DNA of 64,000 nucleotides from Candidatus Thorarchaeota archaeon. GTDB taxonomy: Archaea > Asgardarchaeota > Thorarchaeia > Thorarchaeales > Thorarchaeaceae. The notes beneath the pieces were generated by a model. That model was not told the DNA's origin. It ran no database searches and saw nothing but the letters and a program-made list of their open reading frames with translations. The translations under genes and the position numbers were made by a program. The DNA is taken from positions 38,527 through 102,526 of the forward strand of contig JBHLRP010000002.1 in NCBI GenBank assembly GCA_048882485.1. Reading direction: 5' to 3'. Within the stretch, counting starts at the first letter, position 1. Each line of letters opens with the position of its first letter. Below are positions 11,782-19,538 of this stretch, in pieces.

Positions 11782-12414
11782 ATGGTTGTAAAACTCGTTG
11801 TCTTCGATGTTGATGGGACGCTAACAAGCCATGCATCCATTTGGTGGAGGCTTCACGAGTACTTCAATACAGAAAGGGAAGGCAAGCTCTATTATGACCA
11901 GTATTTTTCCGGTGAGATTTCTTATAATGAATGGGCCTACTTGGATGCAGGCCTTTGGAAAGGTCAATCTCTTGATGAAGTACTGAATCTGGTAAATGCC
12001 ACCAAATTGGTGCCAGGGGCGGCTGAGGTTGTGGCCAATCTCAAGGAGCACGGCATTCATGTTGCTATCCTCTCAGGAGGGTTAGATATCCTTGCCGAGA
12101 ATGTTGCCAAACGTCTTGGAATTGAGTACGTTCTCACCAATCGCTTAATTCACAAGAATGGGATTTTAACCGGGGAAGTTGAGGTTCATGTTGGCTGGGG
12201 TGAAAAAGTGCAAGAGCTGAAGCATATCTGCAATCATTTCAATGTCCCACTCTCAGAAACCGCATTTGTAGGCGACGGTAGGAACGATATCTCTGTCTTT
12301 GGTGTGGTGGGTCTCTCGATTGCGTTCAGGCCTGAGGATGAAGAGGTCGCAGACTCTGCCATGTTGACAATCAAGGAGAACGACCTGCGGTCAATTCTCC
12401 CTCATGTCATATAG
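11782..12414 (+). CDS. Phosphoserine phosphatase-like HAD-IB hydrolase
   Basis: FDVDGTL, ILSGG, FVGDGRND, IAF.P. Confidence 0.85.
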   Translation: MVVKLVVFDVDGTLTSHASIWWRLHEYFNTEREGKLYYDQYFSGEISYNEWAYLDAGLWKGQSLDEVLNLVNATKLVPGAAEVVANLKEHGIHVAILSGGLDILAENVAKRLGIEYVLTNRLIHKNGILTGEVEVHVGWGEKVQELKHICNHFNVPLSETAFVGDGRNDISVFGVVGLSIAFRPEDEEVADSAMLTIKENDLRSILPHVI

Positions 12415-13558
12415 GCGTTCCCCAAATAAGGAGTGCAAATACATACGCTTGTAGCAATATTATCATCATGCCCTCGAATGTATCTAGCTTATGATCATCA
12501 GTTATAGCCTGCTTCAGGAACCATAAGCTGCCTGCAATCACGACTATCTGAAATAGAACGTAGCGATTCATTGGTATTGGCACAAAAACTCCAATGCCCC
12601 CCATAACGAGAAGCAGAATCTGAAGAACCCCTCCCATCAGGTTTCCAACTGCGATGCCAACCTTTCCCCTCATGGCAGCAATGATTGCTATTCCGTGTTC
12701 TGGAATCGCACCTGCGGCACCAAGGATAAGGGCGGCTACTGCTATTGGATTAACCACCGCACTAATCTGAGCATCATATGTCGTAAGCAACAAATCGACA
12801 GATGAAGTGAGTAGTTCACCCGCAAAGAAGATCCCTATGAATCCCATAACGCAGAGGATTGATGCCGTTTTCATCGAGTGATCCGGCTTTGCTATATCTG
12901 CATTCTGAACTTCTTCTCCTCGCATTAAGTCAATAGAATAGAGGATATAGGAGAGGAACAGAATGAGAGACGCCTCCCATGGGAAGAGGAAATCGTCAGT
13001 GCCTCCCAAAAATGTCACATCAACAATTCCCAGCGCAAACATGCTGGCAAGGGCAACAATTGTCCAACGGATGAGAACAGAATCCTTCCTGATAGCCTCC
13101 TCAGGTACTGCCATATCGTCCTTTTTTCGAGTTGAGATTACAATAGTAATCCCGAGTAACAGCATATTGAAACCGCCTGCTATTAGAACTGAGAGTATAG
13201 CTATAGTCAGAAGTTCAGGCCTATTCTGAAAGAAACCATCAAAAGCAGTCATTCCGCTGACAACAGCCTCTGGCATATTGCTGGCAAGACTTGATAGAAG
13301 GCCTGCAATATATGTAGTATATCCTAGGTGGCCAGAAACGCTCTCAACGCCTTCTACTGCCCATTCTGAAGGTCGAAATGCAAGCCAGATTCCTCCTGTG
13401 ATTCCTAGAAAGACGATGTACAATGGATCGGCATGTGTGTATTCAGCCCAGAAGAATGCAACAACTATCAGTATTGCTATCGCAATTTCGAATTTGCCTG
13501 CATGTAAGGAATCTTTGACTCCACGAAAATGAGATTGCTCATTTTCATCTTTGCCCAT
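12407..13558 (-). CDS. Ca2+/cation antiporter (CaCA) family protein
   Basis: About 11 TMs; alpha-repeats SNMPE and GAIPEH, AVGNLMG. Confidence 0.8.
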   Translation of the reverse strand: MGKDENEQSHFRGVKDSLHAGKFEIAIAILIVVAFFWAEYTHADPLYIVFLGITGGIWLAFRPSEWAVEGVESVSGHLGYTTYIAGLLSSLASNMPEAVVSGMTAFDGFFQNRPELLTIAILSVLIAGGFNMLLLGITIVISTRKKDDMAVPEEAIRKDSVLIRWTIVALASMFALGIVDVTFLGGTDDFLFPWEASLILFLSYILYSIDLMRGEEVQNADIAKPDHSMKTASILCVMGFIGIFFAGELLTSSVDLLLTTYDAQISAVVNPIAVAALILGAAGAIPEHGIAIIAAMRGKVGIAVGNLMGGVLQILLLVMGGIGVFVPIPMNRYVLFQIVVIAGSLWFLKQAITDDHKLDTFEGMMIILLQAYVFALLIWGTPI

Positions 13559-13645
13559 TGAACTCAAATGTTATCCTCCGGAGCAAGAAGGGCTCCAATC
13601 TTGTTGGAGACTTGGATTATACCCAATAATACTATGCTATTAACG

Positions 13646-14842
13646 CTATGGCGTGCCTTTGGCTCTTTCAGTTGCTCCTTGCTTCTGTTGATCATAGTAA
13701 TATCTGGCTCCAGAGCCAGTATTCAAAAGCACAACCTCTTCATCAAAATCAATCTCTCCCATCTCTATGAGATTCCGAACGCCTGCAAGTCCTACAGCTG
13801 CTTCCGGACAAAAGTCCATTCCTTCCATTCGGGCCGCAATTCTATGGCAAGGTTCAATTTCCTGCTCGGCCACAGCTACAGCGCCACCTCCTGACTGGCG
13901 AATTGCAGCAAGAATCAGTCTTCCGGCAAAAGGACTTGGCACCCTCAGCCCTAGTGCTTCGGTTTCACTATTAAGCCATGGTTGAATTTCATCACTCCCC
14001 TGTTCAACAGCCCTAACGATTGGTGCACATCCTGCACTCTGAGCGGCATACATTCTGGGTCTACTGCTTTCTATTAGACCCAATGCCTCCAATTCATCAA
14101 AGCCCTTCCAAATGCCAATAAGAGCTGTGCCACCTCCCGTTGGGCAGATTATGGCATCAGGAACTCTCCATCCAAGCTGTTCTGCAATTTCGAAGGCAAG
14201 AGTCTTCTTGCCCTCCACTCTATAGGGCTCTTTCGTGGTTGAGAGATCTGTCCATTCTCCTCCTGTTTTCTTCATGATTTTGGCGCAATCAGTAATATTG
14301 CCCTCAACATGAACAGTTTCAGCACCGTAGGCAACACAATCTTGGAAAAAGGGCTCAGGTGTGTCTGAAGGCATGAAGATGTGGCATTCAGCTCCTCCTG
14401 CAGCACTATAGGCGCTTGCGGACACTGCTGCATTCCCCGCTGATGGCAACGCAAATGATGTAGAGCCAAGCTCCATATGCTTGGACACTGCGACACTCAG
14501 GCCACGGTCTTTGAAAGAACCAGTTGGATTCTGAGCCTCATCCTTTATGCTAAGAAACCTTAGGCCTAGATGTTTTCCGAGACGTCGCGTATTGATGAGT
14601 GGGGTCCAACCTTCTCCTAAGCTGAAAATATAGGATGGTGATTTGACAGGCAAAAGTTGAGAATATCTCCACATTGAATTGACTTTTGTTGGAAATTGCT
14701 CTCTTTGAATATCCTCGATTACACTGAATAGATCATAAACAGCAAAGAGAGGTGAACCGCACACACAGAAAGTTGCATGCGCCTCAGCCGAATGACTTCT
14801 GCTACACTGTGGACATTCCAAGTGGAGAAGGTGAGATATCAT
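13646..14842 (-). CDS. thrC: Threonine synthase (PLP)
   Basis: N-terminal CxxC/CxC, SLGEGWTPL, NPTGSFKDRG, SAGNAA, EGKKT, PTGGG, NTGSG. Confidence 0.88.
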   Translation of the reverse strand: MISHLLHLECPQCSRSHSAEAHATFCVCGSPLFAVYDLFSVIEDIQREQFPTKVNSMWRYSQLLPVKSPSYIFSLGEGWTPLINTRRLGKHLGLRFLSIKDEAQNPTGSFKDRGLSVAVSKHMELGSTSFALPSAGNAAVSASAYSAAGGAECHIFMPSDTPEPFFQDCVAYGAETVHVEGNITDCAKIMKKTGGEWTDLSTTKEPYRVEGKKTLAFEIAEQLGWRVPDAIICPTGGGTALIGIWKGFDELEALGLIESSRPRMYAAQSAGCAPIVRAVEQGSDEIQPWLNSETEALGLRVPSPFAGRLILAAIRQSGGGAVAVAEQEIEPCHRIAARMEGMDFCPEAAVGLAGVRNLIEMGEIDFDEEVVLLNTGSGARYYYDQQKQGATERAKGTP

Positions 14843-14916
14843 AATTACTCCCACACTTACATAGACGCGCACCCTTATTTGAGTGTGTTACTTTTTCTGC
14901 GTGGGATGAACCTCAC

Positions 14917-16110
14917 TTGGGCGAACTGAAACGGTCTGTGTTGCCATTCACATCAATAGTTGGACTAGCCAACCTGAAACTAGCTCTGATTCTAAATGGA
15001 GTAAATCCACAGATTGGTGGAGTTCTGATATCTGGGCCCAAAGGAACTGGAAAAACCACCGTGGTTAGGGCGCTAGCCGACCTTCTACCTGAAGTTGATG
15101 TTGTAGAAGGATGTCGATTTGGGTGCAATCCTCATCGTGAGGAGTATCTATGTCAGGATTGCATTGAACTATTAGCCAGCAATAAGACTCTGAAGAGCGT
15201 TACAAGGAAGATGCGTGTGGTAAACCTCCCACTCTCCACAACAGAAGATCGATTAATTGGGGCACTTGATATTGAGCGCGTCCTTCAGGATGGTATTCAA
15301 GCTCTGAAACCCGGAATCCTAGCTGAAGCGCATCAGAATGTGCTGTATGTCGATGAGGTGAACCTTCTCCCCGACCATCTAGTAGATGACTTGTTGGATG
15401 CGGCTGCAACCAAAATCAATGTTATAGAACGAGAAGGAATCTCCATTGCCCATCCTTCTGATTTCGTTCTGATAGGCACAATGAATCCGGAGGAAGGGGA
15501 ACTTAGACCTCAGCTTTTGGACCGATTTCCGCTCCACGTCGCAGTAGGTGCTGATCATACCGTAGAGGAACGCATGCAATTAGTTAGAAGGAACCTAGCA
15601 TTTGAGAGTAATCCTGAGCAGTTTGAGGAAGATTGGTCCCAAAGTCAGTCAGAGCTAAGAGAGAAGATAATCAATGCAAAAGCGATACTCCATGAAGTTT
15701 ACCTCTCAGACCACAGTCTTCGAGCGATTGCTATAGCTACAGATGCACTCGAAGTGGATGGTGTCCGACCGGATATTATCATCAGTAAGGCTGCTATAAC
15801 AAACGCGGCTTACGAAGGCCGCACTGAGGCTACACTGGAAGATATGAAGCTAGCCGCTCAGCTTACATTGAGTCATAGGACTCGGAGAGGCGGCCTTTTG
15901 GAGCCGCCCTCATCAAATGATATTGATATGGCAATAACAAAGGCCGCAGAGATAGCCAAGAAGAGGGACAAACAAGCTTCGCCTACCGAAGTCCCATCAT
16001 CAGAAGAAGATAAGTCTGGCAAACGTAGTAGTGGGGGTCGGTTTAGTCGAGGCGATAGGTTCGCTACTGGCGGCCGGCAGGAAGGTCAAAAAAAAAAGCT
16101 AAAGGTGTAA
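14917..16110 (+). CDS. Mg/Co chelatase subunit I-like AAA+ ATPase (0-frame product of a frameshifted chlD-like gene)
   Basis: PFTSIVG, GPKGTGKTT, TEDRLIG, LYVDEVNLL, EREGIS, GTMNPEEGELRPQLLDRF. Confidence 0.92.
   Translation: MGELKRSVLPFTSIVGLANLKLALILNGVNPQIGGVLISGPKGTGKTTVVRALADLLPEVDVVEGCRFGCNPHREEYLCQDCIELLASNKTLKSVTRKMRVVNLPLSTTEDRLIGALDIERVLQDGIQALKPGILAEAHQNVLYVDEVNLLPDHLVDDLLDAAATKINVIEREGISIAHPSDFVLIGTMNPEEGELRPQLLDRFPLHVAVGADHTVEERMQLVRRNLAFESNPEQFEEDWSQSQSELREKIINAKAILHEVYLSDHSLRAIAIATDALEVDGVRPDIIISKAAITNAAYEGRTEATLEDMKLAAQLTLSHRTRRGGLLEPPSSNDIDMAITKAAEIAKKRDKQASPTEVPSSEEDKSGKRSSGGRFSRGDRFATGGRQEGQKKKLKV
16088..16098 (+). other. A10G slippery site (A_AAA_AAG); candidate programmed -1 frameshift/transcriptional slippage site
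   Basis: CAA AAA AAA AAG lies four codons before TAA; the -1 frame is open from the A-run into ORF 16155..17585. Confidence 0.75.
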
Positions 16111-16154
16111 GAAATCCCCAGGGAGATCCAATCAAGGGTACAATCTGTGCCATA

Positions 16155-17585
16155 ATGATGATTGTTGTCTTTGCTTACTTTGCATGGATTTACTGGTCAC
16201 CCATCAATCTTCTTTTTGGTCTCTTCCCCGGTGAGTTTCCAACTTTGCCTGTGATTATAGTTGACACTATCGTGTTTGCGCCAATTATCTACAACCTCGT
16301 CAGAAAATGGCTCAGCATCATGACAAGGCGTCAGAGCGGACCAGCAGCAGGCATTGATACAGTCGATGGAGGATTGGGAGTTCCAGAACCTGGAGATGAA
16401 TGGGGAGTTGCCACAAGACCCTATAGTGCCAAGAAGGAAACCACAGTCATCGGTTCAAAGTCAGAGGTCAGAGAGCCTCTTGGTATCGATGCAGGCTTCT
16501 TCATCAAGCTCCCGGACCTGGATACTGGAGAGGTGTTATTTGATATTGAGTATCTTCAGAGCAGGACAATGAGGAAGTCGGTTGTGTCTTCCGGCGGATG
16601 GATTCAGAAACGAGTAAGCTCCCGCTCTATGGGCTCTCTAAAGACGTCGGACTCAAGTCAATACGGACGGCCCGTTAGGTCACGGAAACCTAGAGGTGAC
16701 GTGAGGAGCATCAACATTCCCGCCACAATTATGGCTTCAATTTCACGAATGGGAAAGCTTCATCACACTCAGAGAATCGAAATCTCAGAGGAAGACATCA
16801 GAGAGTCTGTATTTAGTGGGAGAACGCCTCTAACAGTGTTGCTTGTCATTGATGTGAGTATGTCAATGAAGGGATCAATGAGGGAAGTACGTGACATCCT
16901 TGAAGCAATTGAGCGCGAAACAAGAGGTTCAAAGGATCGAACTGGGATTATCGCATTCAAGGACAGCGGAGCTATTGAAGTTCAAGCCCCCACAAGCAAC
17001 TGGAACAAGATCTATAGGGCTCTTGGCAAGCTGCGCGTATCAGGCTTGACTCCTCTTGCAGAAGCCTTAATGAAAGCATTAGAAACTGTCCGTAGAGAGA
17101 GAATGAGAAATAGGGACATTGAACCATTGATTGTCTTGATATCTGACTTCGCACCCAACATACCCTTGGCACAATCCGTGGGCCCTGGTCATGCTAAATA
17201 CACTCCCATTAGAGATCTTGTCAAGGCCGCCCGTCTTATCCGAAAAGCAAAGGTCCGAATTGCAGCTGTTGATGTGAACCCAGAGCATGTAAATTGGTCC
17301 AAGTTTTTGCGGCGTCCGTATTATGAGGCCTTGGAGCTGGCAGCCAATCTTAGAATGAAAAAAGAGGGGCACAATGATCCAGTAGAAACGGTTCTTGAGG
17401 TGCCGGAATTTAGAAAGACATTTGGTGCCTTCTTAGTGGCTCGTACCGGAGGTGGTAGGGCGTTTCTGTGGAAAGAACTGCTGCAAGAGCGGTCGATTAT
17501 TGGAGAATTTTTGCGCGGTAGCACGATCAAATCACGTATCAGGTCAGAGGATCTCCGAGAGGCGGAAGCATATCTTCCAGACTAG
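16155..17585 (+). CDS. ChlD C-terminal-like VWA domain protein with N-terminal TM hairpin (probably translated as a -1 frameshift extension of 14917)
   Basis: GRPVRSR....SINIPATI, DIRE.VF, VIDVSMSM (MIDAS), IAFK, PT, GLTPLAEAL, VLISD. Confidence 0.85.
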   Translation: MMIVVFAYFAWIYWSPINLLFGLFPGEFPTLPVIIVDTIVFAPIIYNLVRKWLSIMTRRQSGPAAGIDTVDGGLGVPEPGDEWGVATRPYSAKKETTVIGSKSEVREPLGIDAGFFIKLPDLDTGEVLFDIEYLQSRTMRKSVVSSGGWIQKRVSSRSMGSLKTSDSSQYGRPVRSRKPRGDVRSINIPATIMASISRMGKLHHTQRIEISEEDIRESVFSGRTPLTVLLVIDVSMSMKGSMREVRDILEAIERETRGSKDRTGIIAFKDSGAIEVQAPTSNWNKIYRALGKLRVSGLTPLAEALMKALETVRRERMRNRDIEPLIVLISDFAPNIPLAQSVGPGHAKYTPIRDLVKAARLIRKAKVRIAAVDVNPEHVNWSKFLRRPYYEALELAANLRMKKEGHNDPVETVLEVPEFRKTFGAFLVARTGGGRAFLWKELLQERSIIGEFLRGSTIKSRIRSEDLREAEAYLPD

Positions 17586-17761
17586 CACCTCTCGATTAGT
17601 TTATACCGATACCACTCCCTTCATGTGTTGCGCATCTAGTCTGAGACAAGTCTGTTGTCATAGTGAGTTAGGAGAGCCCCGAATGGGGTTTCGATGAATT
17701 TCCTTTTCATGCAATAGGCACAGGACTGATGCGCACCTTGACTGCAGAGGAGTATTTGATA

Positions 17762-18772
17762 TTGCTACCAGGGAAAGTCCCTCCGGATGTATTGGGTCGG
17801 ATTGTCTTCTCTCATCTTGGCAAGACGGACAAGGATCTCATTCTTGGTCCCGGCATTGGTGAGGATGCTTCATTGATTCGTGTAGGCAATTCAGTTATTG
17901 TCGCAGCGACTGATCCAATCACTGGATCGGTTGAAGACATAGGATGGCTCGCAGTCCATATCAATGCAAATGATATAGCAACTTTTGGAGTTCAACCTCG
18001 TTGGTTTTTGGCATCAATAATGCTACCATCTGGATTTCAAGAGCCTGACTTAGAACGCATAATGACACAAATCCATGAGGCAGCAATGTCACTTGACATC
18101 TCCGTGGCTGGTGGGCACACCGAGATAACTGAAGGTATCGACAGGCCAATTATTGCTGGCTTTATGATGGGAATGACAACTGAAAATGGATACGTGACAT
18201 CTGCAGGTGCAAAACCTGGAAATACTATAATAATGACAAAGACAGCCGCAATCGAAGGTACAGCAATCCTTGCAGCCGAAGGCGCACCTCATCTCTCCAA
18301 GATGCTAGGTGAAAAGACAGTCGATGATGCTCTCAGTCTTCGAAGTCAGATTAGTGTTGTAGAGGATGGTATCGTCGCATTTGAAACAGGGCATATCACA
18401 TCAATGCATGATCCAACCGAGGGTGGTCTAATAGGGGGGCTGCATGAGATTTGTGATGCGAGTAATGTTGGATTTGAGATTGATTTGGATTCTATCCCGA
18501 TACATGATGCCACCAAATCTATCTGTGAACTTCTGTCAATCAATATACTTGAGCTAATCAGTAGTGGAAGCATGTTGATGACATGTATGCCCGAAGGTGC
18601 TGATTTGGTGACCGCAGCCTTGGAGGACAATGGGATCAAAGCAACCGTCCTCGGAACTGTTTCCTCAGATGCCTCCGTAAGAAAGGGTGTAAGGAACGGA
18701 GAGTCAATTCAAATTCCCCGTCCGAGCAACGATGCTATCTGGGAGGCTCTCAAGAAACTCAATCAGACATGA
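17762..18772 (+). CDS. AIR synthase-related/HypE-like protein
   Basis: GPGIGED, TDPITG, NANDIA, GGHTE, MHDPTEGG; TTG 17762 after gaggag SD. Confidence 0.85.
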   Translation: MLPGKVPPDVLGRIVFSHLGKTDKDLILGPGIGEDASLIRVGNSVIVAATDPITGSVEDIGWLAVHINANDIATFGVQPRWFLASIMLPSGFQEPDLERIMTQIHEAAMSLDISVAGGHTEITEGIDRPIIAGFMMGMTTENGYVTSAGAKPGNTIIMTKTAAIEGTAILAAEGAPHLSKMLGEKTVDDALSLRSQISVVEDGIVAFETGHITSMHDPTEGGLIGGLHEICDASNVGFEIDLDSIPIHDATKSICELLSINILELISSGSMLMTCMPEGADLVTAALEDNGIKATVLGTVSSDASVRKGVRNGESIQIPRPSNDAIWEALKKLNQT

Positions 18773-19538
18773 ATTGCTTTAGCGAATCGATATGCTGATC
18801 CGTGGCCGCCTCGATGATTATGGGTGATAGCGAGATATTTGTACTGTTCAATACTATATCTGCGTCTGTTCCTTTTGAAGGAGCATTATGAATCCCCTTC
18901 AGCCAATAGTACGGACTCTGATTAGGATCAACTCTTTTATCCAGCTCGTTGCTTATGCGTACTCGTGCAGGCTTGGTGACCACGATTTTGCTTTCTTCTG
19001 ATAGGATTGATGGGAAATTCAGGTTGATGGCATCGATTCCTTTTGGAAGCCCTTTGCCCAGCACTCTCAGAACTACATCACGAATCACTTCACAAATTTC
19101 GGTATAATCCCTCTCCTTCTCAGCGCTGTTAAACCATTCATTAGGCTCAACAATGAGTGAAGCCGCAATGGCTGGAAATCCCATCAGAGCTGCCTCCATT
19201 GCAGCACCGACGGTTCCACTCGTAAACATGCTCTGATATCCAAGATTGCCTCCAGCATTTATCCCAGATACAAAGAGGTCAATGTCATCAATGAGACATC
19301 TAGCAAGCACAACGGAGTCTGCTGGTGAACCGTCGTGTGTGATCATCTCAAACCCATTTGCGCTCTTCATCCTTTTAATGCGCAAAGGTCTATTCAAAGT
19401 CAGTGTCTTGCCAGAGGCGCTACGCTCACCATCCGGGACCACAATAGAAATGTCAACGTGCGGAGACAGGGTTTCAGCAAGCTTCAGCAGACCGCTACTG
19501 AATGGGCCATCATCATTTGTTAAACAGACTCTGTTCAA
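18759..19538 (-). CDS. surE: 5'/3'-nucleotidase SurE
   Basis: LTNDDG, GSPADSV, SGINAGGN, SGTVGAAMEA, NLNFP. Confidence 0.93.
   Translation of the reverse strand: MNRVCLTNDDGPFSSGLLKLAETLSPHVDISIVVPDGERSASGKTLTLNRPLRIKRMKSANGFEMITHDGSPADSVVLARCLIDDIDLFVSGINAGGNLGYQSMFTSGTVGAAMEAALMGFPAIAASLIVEPNEWFNSAEKERDYTEICEVIRDVVLRVLGKGLPKGIDAINLNFPSILSEESKIVVTKPARVRISNELDKRVDPNQSPYYWLKGIHNAPSKGTDADIVLNSTNISLSPIIIEAATDQHIDSLKQFMSD

Follow-up and report, generated by a model that had tools for sequence, protein, structure and literature searches.

A conserved A-run in Thorarchaeota probably recodes one gene of the frameshifted chlD kind into a short ATPase and a long ATPase-VWA protein

In Escherichia coli the gamma and tau proteins are both made from the dnaX gene by a ribosomal -1 frameshift on A_AAA_AAG, stimulated by a Shine-Dalgarno (SD) sequence approximately 10 nt upstream, and the slip gives the short product. 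Frameshifted chlD or "magnesium chelatase" genes are reportedly described by Antonov (2020, in Molecular Biology and Evolution). A cluster of frameshifted (fs) Mg-chelatase genes, with members in Methanocaldococcus and Methanococcus, uses -1 shifts on poly-A stretches of 7-11 A's (Antonov et al. 2013, PMC3711429; PMC9227772). In E. coli reporters the shifting by chelatase poly-A cassettes was 10% with 7 A's, 40% with 9 and 63% with 11, a result that does not separate ribosomal from transcriptional slippage (PMC3711429). The "stage 1" fs-chlD cases of Kuznetsov et al. (2022) have no large chelatase subunit and no B12 or chlorophyll pathway (PMC9227772). For archaea, a 2021 review of recoding names a single experimentally shown cellular -1 frameshift, the programmed ribosomal frameshifting (PRF) of the alpha-L-fucosidase gene fucA1 of Saccharolobus solfataricus, and lists the chelatase case as presumed (PMC8211752). 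Here we analysed a ChlI/ChlD-type locus in a stretch of 64,000 nt from Candidatus Thorarchaeota archaeon (GCA_048882485.1, contig JBHLRP010000002.1, positions 38,527 to 102,526), called the window below and numbered from its first letter. An ATPase open reading frame (ORF1) and a VWA domain open reading frame (ORF2) meet there at a run of ten A's (A10). We put the probability at about 0.82 that they form one recoded gene of the published frameshifted-chlD kind, in which a -1 slip on A10 yields a short and a long product.

The slip site is the A10 run at 16088-16097, with GGAAGGTC as its 5´ and GCTAAAGGTGTAA as its 3´ neighbour. The end of the 0 frame reads GGT CAA AAA AAA AAG CTA AAG GTG TAA, and this TAA at 16108-16110 lies 13 nt past the end of A10, four codons downstream of the run. 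An open -1 frame extends from 16056 to 17585; the earliest ATG, GTG or TTG in it is the ATG at 16155. A preliminary description of the window, made from its letters alone, had proposed this A10, this 0-frame ending and this open -1 frame, and all three were confirmed on the sequence. There is one ChlI/ChlD locus per genome, and no other was found in the source genome. The features of the locus are:

14917-16110, + strand: ORF1 in the 0 frame, 397 amino acids from a TTG, the short product, a ChlI-type AAA+ ATPase
16056-16110, + strand: overlap in which the 0 and -1 frames are both open
16080-16086, + strand: GGAAGGT, an SD-like element present here, not kept across the family and unsupported as a stimulator
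16088-16097, + strand: A10 run, the slip site, with in-phase A_AAA_AAA and A_AAA_AAG inside CAA AAA AAA AAG
16098-17585, + strand: continuation in the -1 frame, the C-terminal 495 amino acids of the 889-amino-acid long product
16108-16110, + strand: stop codon TAA of the 0 frame, overlapping the -1-frame codons GTA AGA (Val-Arg)
16140-16196, + strand: predicted membrane helix 1 (TICAIMMIVVFAYFAWIYW), model helix 12-34, predicted local distance difference test (pLDDT) 77-87
16245-16301, + strand: predicted membrane helix 2 (LPVIIVDTIVFAPIIYNLV), model helix 51-78, followed by a basic stretch (RKW...RR)
16836-17285, + strand: VWA domain with the metal ion-dependent adhesion site (MIDAS) motif DxSxS...T...D, followed by a helical C-terminal extension of about 100 amino acids

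Judged by its substitutions, the 48-nt gap between the ORF1 stop and the ORF2 ATG evolves as coding sequence of the -1 frame. In pairwise comparisons of 14 frameshifted orthologues, the differences in this gap were 0.20/0.07/0.61 by codon position in the -1 frame, and the ratio of synonymous to non-synonymous changes was 696:315 in the -1 frame versus 53:870 and 39:869 in the other two. A conserved peptide, VRNPxGDPIKGTICAI, comes from the part of the -1 frame that lies past the ORF1 stop and ahead of the earliest possible ORF2 start at 16155. Upstream of that position the open -1 frame contains no ATG, GTG or TTG, and the ATG itself sits within predicted membrane helix 1.

For the comparison across Thorarchaeota we used the first 16 family genomes, 44 named Thorarchaeota loci with both halves and a sample of 301 genomes of the phylum. 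ORF2 was found at -1 behind A9 or A10 in 14 of the first 16 family genomes, in which the run has the form CA10G in the source genus and is an in-phase A9 in other genera. The preliminary description had made conservation of the A-run and of the -1 register in related metagenome-assembled genomes (MAGs) the point to be checked, and both are conserved: 39-40 of the 44 named loci are at -1 (with A9 in 29 loci, A10 in 6, A11 in 3 and A7 in 1), and the split frame is present in about 58 of the 63 full-length family matches from the phylum sample. All but one of the 44 related loci (43 of 44) have a run of A9-A11, the first A of which falls on codon position 1, 2 or 3 depending on the lineage, and the in-phase heptamer A_AAA_AAA or A_AAA_AAG is kept in every lineage at whatever codon position the run starts. 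In two relatives (L016 and L020) the opening of the -1 frame lies within the run itself and the window for the shift is only 19 nt, which pins the shift to the run. The in-frame exceptions have exactly one extra base at the run (G015=L008/L038 with A11, G001=L009 with C-G-A10, and L052 and L067 with A10 where their sister loci have A9). Open frames of 893-898 amino acids were found in G043, G060 and G071. These in-frame cases fall in four genera, other members of which are split.

The stop codon of the 0 frame is kept in 37 of 44 loci, written as xT[A/G]-AGR at Ile/Val-Arg codons of the -1 frame, where codon usage would lead to an expectation of about 12-23%. This retention of the stop through synonymous choice argues for the importance of the short product and points to selection on its termination as such. 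In other Asgard families we found in-frame versions of 856-995 amino acids, whose linker contains at least one membrane segment and whose junction is free of long A-runs, and therefore the combination of A-run and splitting is a feature of the Thorarchaeota family.

Three loci show deviating arrangements. In one (L046:2981-2989, JAOUFI010000013), a 1-nt difference upstream of the A9 puts the VWA frame at +1/-2 to that of the ATPase; either the assembly is wrong here or a slip of another size would be needed for rescue. Another (L080) has a second break within ORF2, and both of these oddities may be errors. In the third (L054:3004-3010) the A9 is lost and only an in-phase A_AAA_AAA is left, with the 0-frame TAA directly after it; the relatives L016 and L058 carry both runs.

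The A10 run is more than chance would give, because it is the sole homopolymer of at least 10 nt in the 3.96-Mb assembly and thus the longest in the genome, because A/T runs of at least 9 nt are depleted genome-wide (5 observed versus about 41 expected from base composition), and because long ORFs, with 144 Lys-Lys-Lys triplets, never spell one of them as AAAAAAAAA (nine A's), Lys codons being 63% AAG. It is also the only A/T run of at least 9 nt deep within a long open frame. Homopolymers in general are depleted 5-8-fold genome-wide; others of at least 9 nt include an A9 located 29 codons into a 316-codon open frame (G000:C34:17095-17103) and a G9 (G000:C13:65261-65269). Logan contigs from three other sequencing runs of three studies cross the A10 without a gap (X4 covering 15600-16501, X5 15600-16366 and X7 15987-16247), although these are consensus contigs, in which a rare A11 subpopulation could be hidden. 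Among 5.8 billion protein clusters no A11 version of the source species was found, and the only close fused relative of ORF1 was a 90%-identical cluster of 880 amino acids from a sister lineage. The doubt raised in the preliminary description, that the true run might be A11 and the split an assembly error, is, at the level of consensus contigs, dispelled by those of the three other runs, all of which show A10.

ORF1 matched the profile TIGR02442 at positions 2-354 of 641 (E=9e-134), the BchI-ChlI profile TIGR02030 (E=2e-113) and the solved ChlI structure 6l8d (E=6e-93), and contains a Walker A motif (GPKGTGKT), a Walker B motif (VDEV) and an AAA lid. ORF2 corresponds to positions 401-621 of TIGR02442, a model of the fused form, and includes the VWA domain. 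A structure search with the ORF2 model returned generic VWA domains only and confirmed the VWA fold, and the MIDAS residues D253, S255, S257, T319 and D351 are invariant in an alignment of 14 orthologues. Profile, PDB and VWA domain matches agree with the proposed identities of a ChlI-like ATPase and a VWA ORF. The order of the long form, read from an in-frame orthologue of 889 amino acids (L008), is AAA+ module, Lys-rich linker, two-helix hairpin, spacer, VWA domain and a helical tail of about 100 amino acids. The linker is not of the soluble acidic/Pro-rich type and contains two hydrophobic helices (pLDDT 77-87) that are conserved in the family; the spacer of about 90 amino acids is likewise conserved, and residues 80-204 of the model are of low confidence. 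Basic residues flank the helices on the ATPase and VWA sides, which suggests that ATPase and VWA domain both face the cytoplasm. ORF1 also contains a cluster of four cysteines (C66-x3-C70 ... C79-x2-C82, window 15112-15162) just past the Walker A region; the ChlI-like module may thus have a metal-binding insertion here.

The large chelatase subunit CobN/ChlH (PF02514) was absent from all 61 family genomes searched, among them the source genome and 23 high-quality genomes, while control genomes gave matches. Classical tetrapyrrole chelation is therefore unlikely as the function of this locus. The label "ChlD-like", applied to ORF2 in the preliminary description, is right as to the VWA domain and its MIDAS motif, but needs to be qualified since the linker holds a predicted membrane hairpin and no large subunit was found in these genomes.

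If the locus is one recoded gene, standard decoding would stop at the TAA at 16108-16110 and give a soluble ChlI-type AAA+ ATPase of 397 amino acids, while a fraction of the expression events would shift frame by -1 on A10. The shift might come about in two ways: the ribosome could move back by one base on A_AAA_AAA/A_AAA_AAG, or the RNA polymerase could put one extra A into the mRNA. Either route would lead to a protein of 889 amino acids with the same ATPase, the Lys-rich linker, the two-helix membrane hairpin, the conserved spacer and the MIDAS-bearing VWA domain. Both products would be made and might cooperate like ChlI and ChlD, at the membrane and on a target other than a tetrapyrrole chelatase large subunit.

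Several observations weigh against the recoded-gene reading. RNA structure 3´ of the run is not conserved (0 pairs with RNAalifold) and the fold of the locus itself is unremarkable (z=0.04). The SD-like element is not conserved either, being absent from 17 of 44 loci, with GGAAGG in only 16 and GGAGG in 3; thus, no classical PRF stimulator is seen. The single RNA contig, from the metatranscriptome of a 98%-identical relative (X20), spans only 16376-16600 and lies off the junction. ARAGORN did not find a tRNA-Lys in the 90%-complete MAG, with or without introns, and the assembly also lacks a 16S rRNA, which would have provided an anti-SD sequence for comparison. Most loci have an ATG corresponding to the one at 16155, and some independent starts of a shortened ORF2 are possible. 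In addition, there are Asgard relatives with the in-frame long gene alone and no separate ChlI; the long form can suffice there and the short product is less needed.

A one-base slip on the A-run is probable, and between ribosome and RNA polymerase the odds are roughly even, leaning slightly to transcriptional slippage. The homopolymer expected for transcriptional slippage (about 9 or more A/T, in any codon phase) is present, and so is the in-phase X_XXY_YYZ heptamer of dnaX-type -1 PRF, but the downstream stem-loop of the latter, and its SD-like stimulator at a distance of about 10 nt, were not found. Long A-runs, such as the A9 of Thermus dnaX, are a hallmark of RNA polymerase slippage (PMC3711429). 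The presence of an in-phase A_AAA_AAR in every lineage is compatible with ribosomal -1 slippage; the length of the run (at least 9 in 43 of 44 loci), the lack of structure, the poor conservation of the SD-like element and the fact that long A-runs typify polymerase slippage argue against a classical ribosomal signal. The preliminary description had proposed a dnaX-type signal with GGAAGGT as its SD-like element. The A_AAA_AAG is indeed in phase and the GGAAGGT is indeed located 5´ of the run, but a conserved downstream structure was not found, and the element is at the wrong spacing, since it adjoins the run directly, and its GGAAGG is missing or altered in most genera, so that a role as stimulator is not supported.

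Several other explanations have to be weighed against a gene with two products. Slippage might merely rescue the gene, the long protein being the sole functional product, an ancestral one-base deletion in the A-run being tolerated and the 397-amino-acid form arising as a by-product. The other Asgard families, in which the long gene is in frame and stands alone, with ChlI not encoded separately, would fit this, as would the return to an in-frame state in at least four genera. We nevertheless consider it unlikely, since the split state persists over at least 16 genera, the run is held at 9 or more A's against codon usage and the 0-frame stop four codons past the run is kept by synonymous choice in 37 of 44 loci; furthermore, it is assumed for the published fs-chlD genes that both subunits come from them (PMC9227772). 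Far less probable is a pair of ordinary adjacent genes, with ORF2 starting at ATG 16155 and the A-run being incidental or a promoter-like A-rich element. Annotators do call two genes, and an ATG (or GTG/TTG) is usually located at the position of 16155. Such a start would fall inside membrane helix 1, though, and leave the -1-frame coding signature upstream of it without a reason; in addition, the -1 register is fixed in about 90% of the genomes despite changes in linker length, the in-frame variants differ by one base at the run, and fused relatives exist.

Variation at the DNA level would also explain a frame that differs by one base: replication would alter the length of the A-run and the long protein would be made only in A11 cells. 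Both A10/A11 and A9/A10 states are found among the species, and poly-A runs are slippery for DNA polymerases too (PMC3711429). This phase variation has, in our view, hardly any chance of being correct, since about 90% of the species have an out-of-frame consensus although purifying selection on ORF2 is strong and its MIDAS invariant, and since the contigs of three other samples all have A10 and the protein clusters contain no A11 version of the species. Finally, homopolymers are error-prone and one locus (L080) carries an additional break, but a sequencing or assembly error, or a pseudogene, is effectively refuted by the same state in dozens of independent assemblies from many studies and in independent contigs, and by the conservation of both halves. 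The comparative evidence thus gives good support to the proposal of the preliminary description that one gene of an Asgard archaeon yields a 397-amino-acid ATPase and a long ATPase-VWA protein (889 amino acids) by a -1 change on an A-run.

As to what the two products might do, we tentatively consider, at somewhat less than even odds, that the slip is a localisation and stoichiometry switch of an Asgard-specific AAA+/VWA machine that is independent of a large subunit and has a function other than tetrapyrrole chelation. The unslipped product would supply free ATPase protomers, and the slipped product the same ATPase tethered to the membrane by the hairpin, with a cytoplasmic MIDAS-VWA adaptor. 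If so, a fixed slip rate would set the number of membrane-anchored protomers per mixed ring, and Asgard archaea would have a cellular recoding event that is conserved throughout a clade. Asgard forms of 640-750 amino acids and Bathyarchaeia forms of about 800 amino acids have no membrane segment; the latter fusions carry the Pfam domain PF26791.

The locus is flanked by genes for a Na/Ca exchanger and threonine synthase (thrC), both on the - strand (window 12407-14872), and by surE, encoding SurE, on the - strand (18759-19538). Between the long frame and surE, at 17729-18772, lies a gene for an AIR-synthase-family protein (PF00586/PF02769), for which the HypE, ThiL and SelD models matched only below their cut-offs; of 50 Thorarchaeota loci, 48 have such a gene on the same strand, about 145 nt downstream. 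A tRNA-Sec (anticodon tca) was predicted by ARAGORN in the source genome (G000). The flanking order, the exchanger gene included, is kept within the family; the thrC, AIR-synthase-family and surE genes were not found beside the in-frame relatives of other Asgard families and gave no functional lead.

In the output of annotation pipelines the locus appears as two genes, one for a ChlI-like ATPase and one for a "VWA domain protein". This hides the predicted membrane-anchored protein of 889 amino acids, and the two-gene annotation implies a chelatase where no large subunit exists. A slip site present in roughly 60 Thorarchaeota species, together with in-frame sisters as natural "controls", offers a clean comparative system in which to study the mechanism of recoding in the closest archaeal lineage to eukaryotes, including the question of whether it is the ribosome or the RNA polymerase that slips.

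The slip device itself has already been published for the chlD family, and the Thorarchaeota case extends a known principle; what sets the Thorarchaeota version apart is the membrane hairpin, the lack of a large subunit and the distribution throughout an Asgard family. A description of a frameshifted chelatase from Thorarchaeota or other Asgard archaea was not found in a literature search, nor is this clade among the published taxa covered, the list of Antonov (2020) being outside that scope. The likeness to the fs-chlD genes is close: a ChlI-type AAA+ ORF is followed by a VWA ORF at -1 without a start of its own, a poly-A of 7-11 is located in the overlap, in-frame fused homologues exist, orthologues keep the frameshift, and each genome has a single such locus and lacks a separate chlI. 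The Thorarchaeota locus differs in having a two-helix membrane hairpin right after the slip site and a spacer of about 90 amino acids, which replace the soluble acidic/Pro-rich ChlD linker, and its long product has an extra C-terminal helical domain of about 100 amino acids. The lack of CobN/ChlH in the 61 family genomes is a further difference, but one that is shared with the published "stage 1" cases.

With dnaX the locus shares the principle of one gene for two proteins with a common AAA+ N-terminus, the in-phase A_AAA_AAG in the source genus, and a run of 9-10 A's as in the slippage type of Thermus (A9 in T. thermophilus) and Chlorobi (PMC3711429). In dnaX, however, the slip leads to the short product, whereas in Thorarchaeota it would lead to the long one, and an SD sequence at the dnaX spacing and a downstream stem-loop were not found here. 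Like fucA1, this is an archaeal gene split between the 0 and -1 frames and joined at an A-rich heptamer (A_AAA_AAT in fucA1). In fucA1 there is only the heptamer, with one functional product, in one species and with low efficiency, whereas the Thorarchaeota site is a run of 9-11 nt, is found family-wide and probably gives two products. At the protein level, the closest systems are the Mg-chelatase subunits ChlI/ChlD (BchI/BchD) and CobS/CobT: ORF1 is 45-50% identical in domain order to the solved ChlI/BchI structures 6l8d, 8osf and 1g8p, and the VWA domain, with its full MIDAS motif, matches BchD (2x31). In contrast to the class I Mg/Co chelatases, the Thorarchaeota genome and family are without a large subunit and the D-like protein is predicted to be membrane-anchored. 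The Thorarchaeota D-like protein also differs from ChlD in its AAA+ module, which is not a degenerate copy but identical to the I-like protein.

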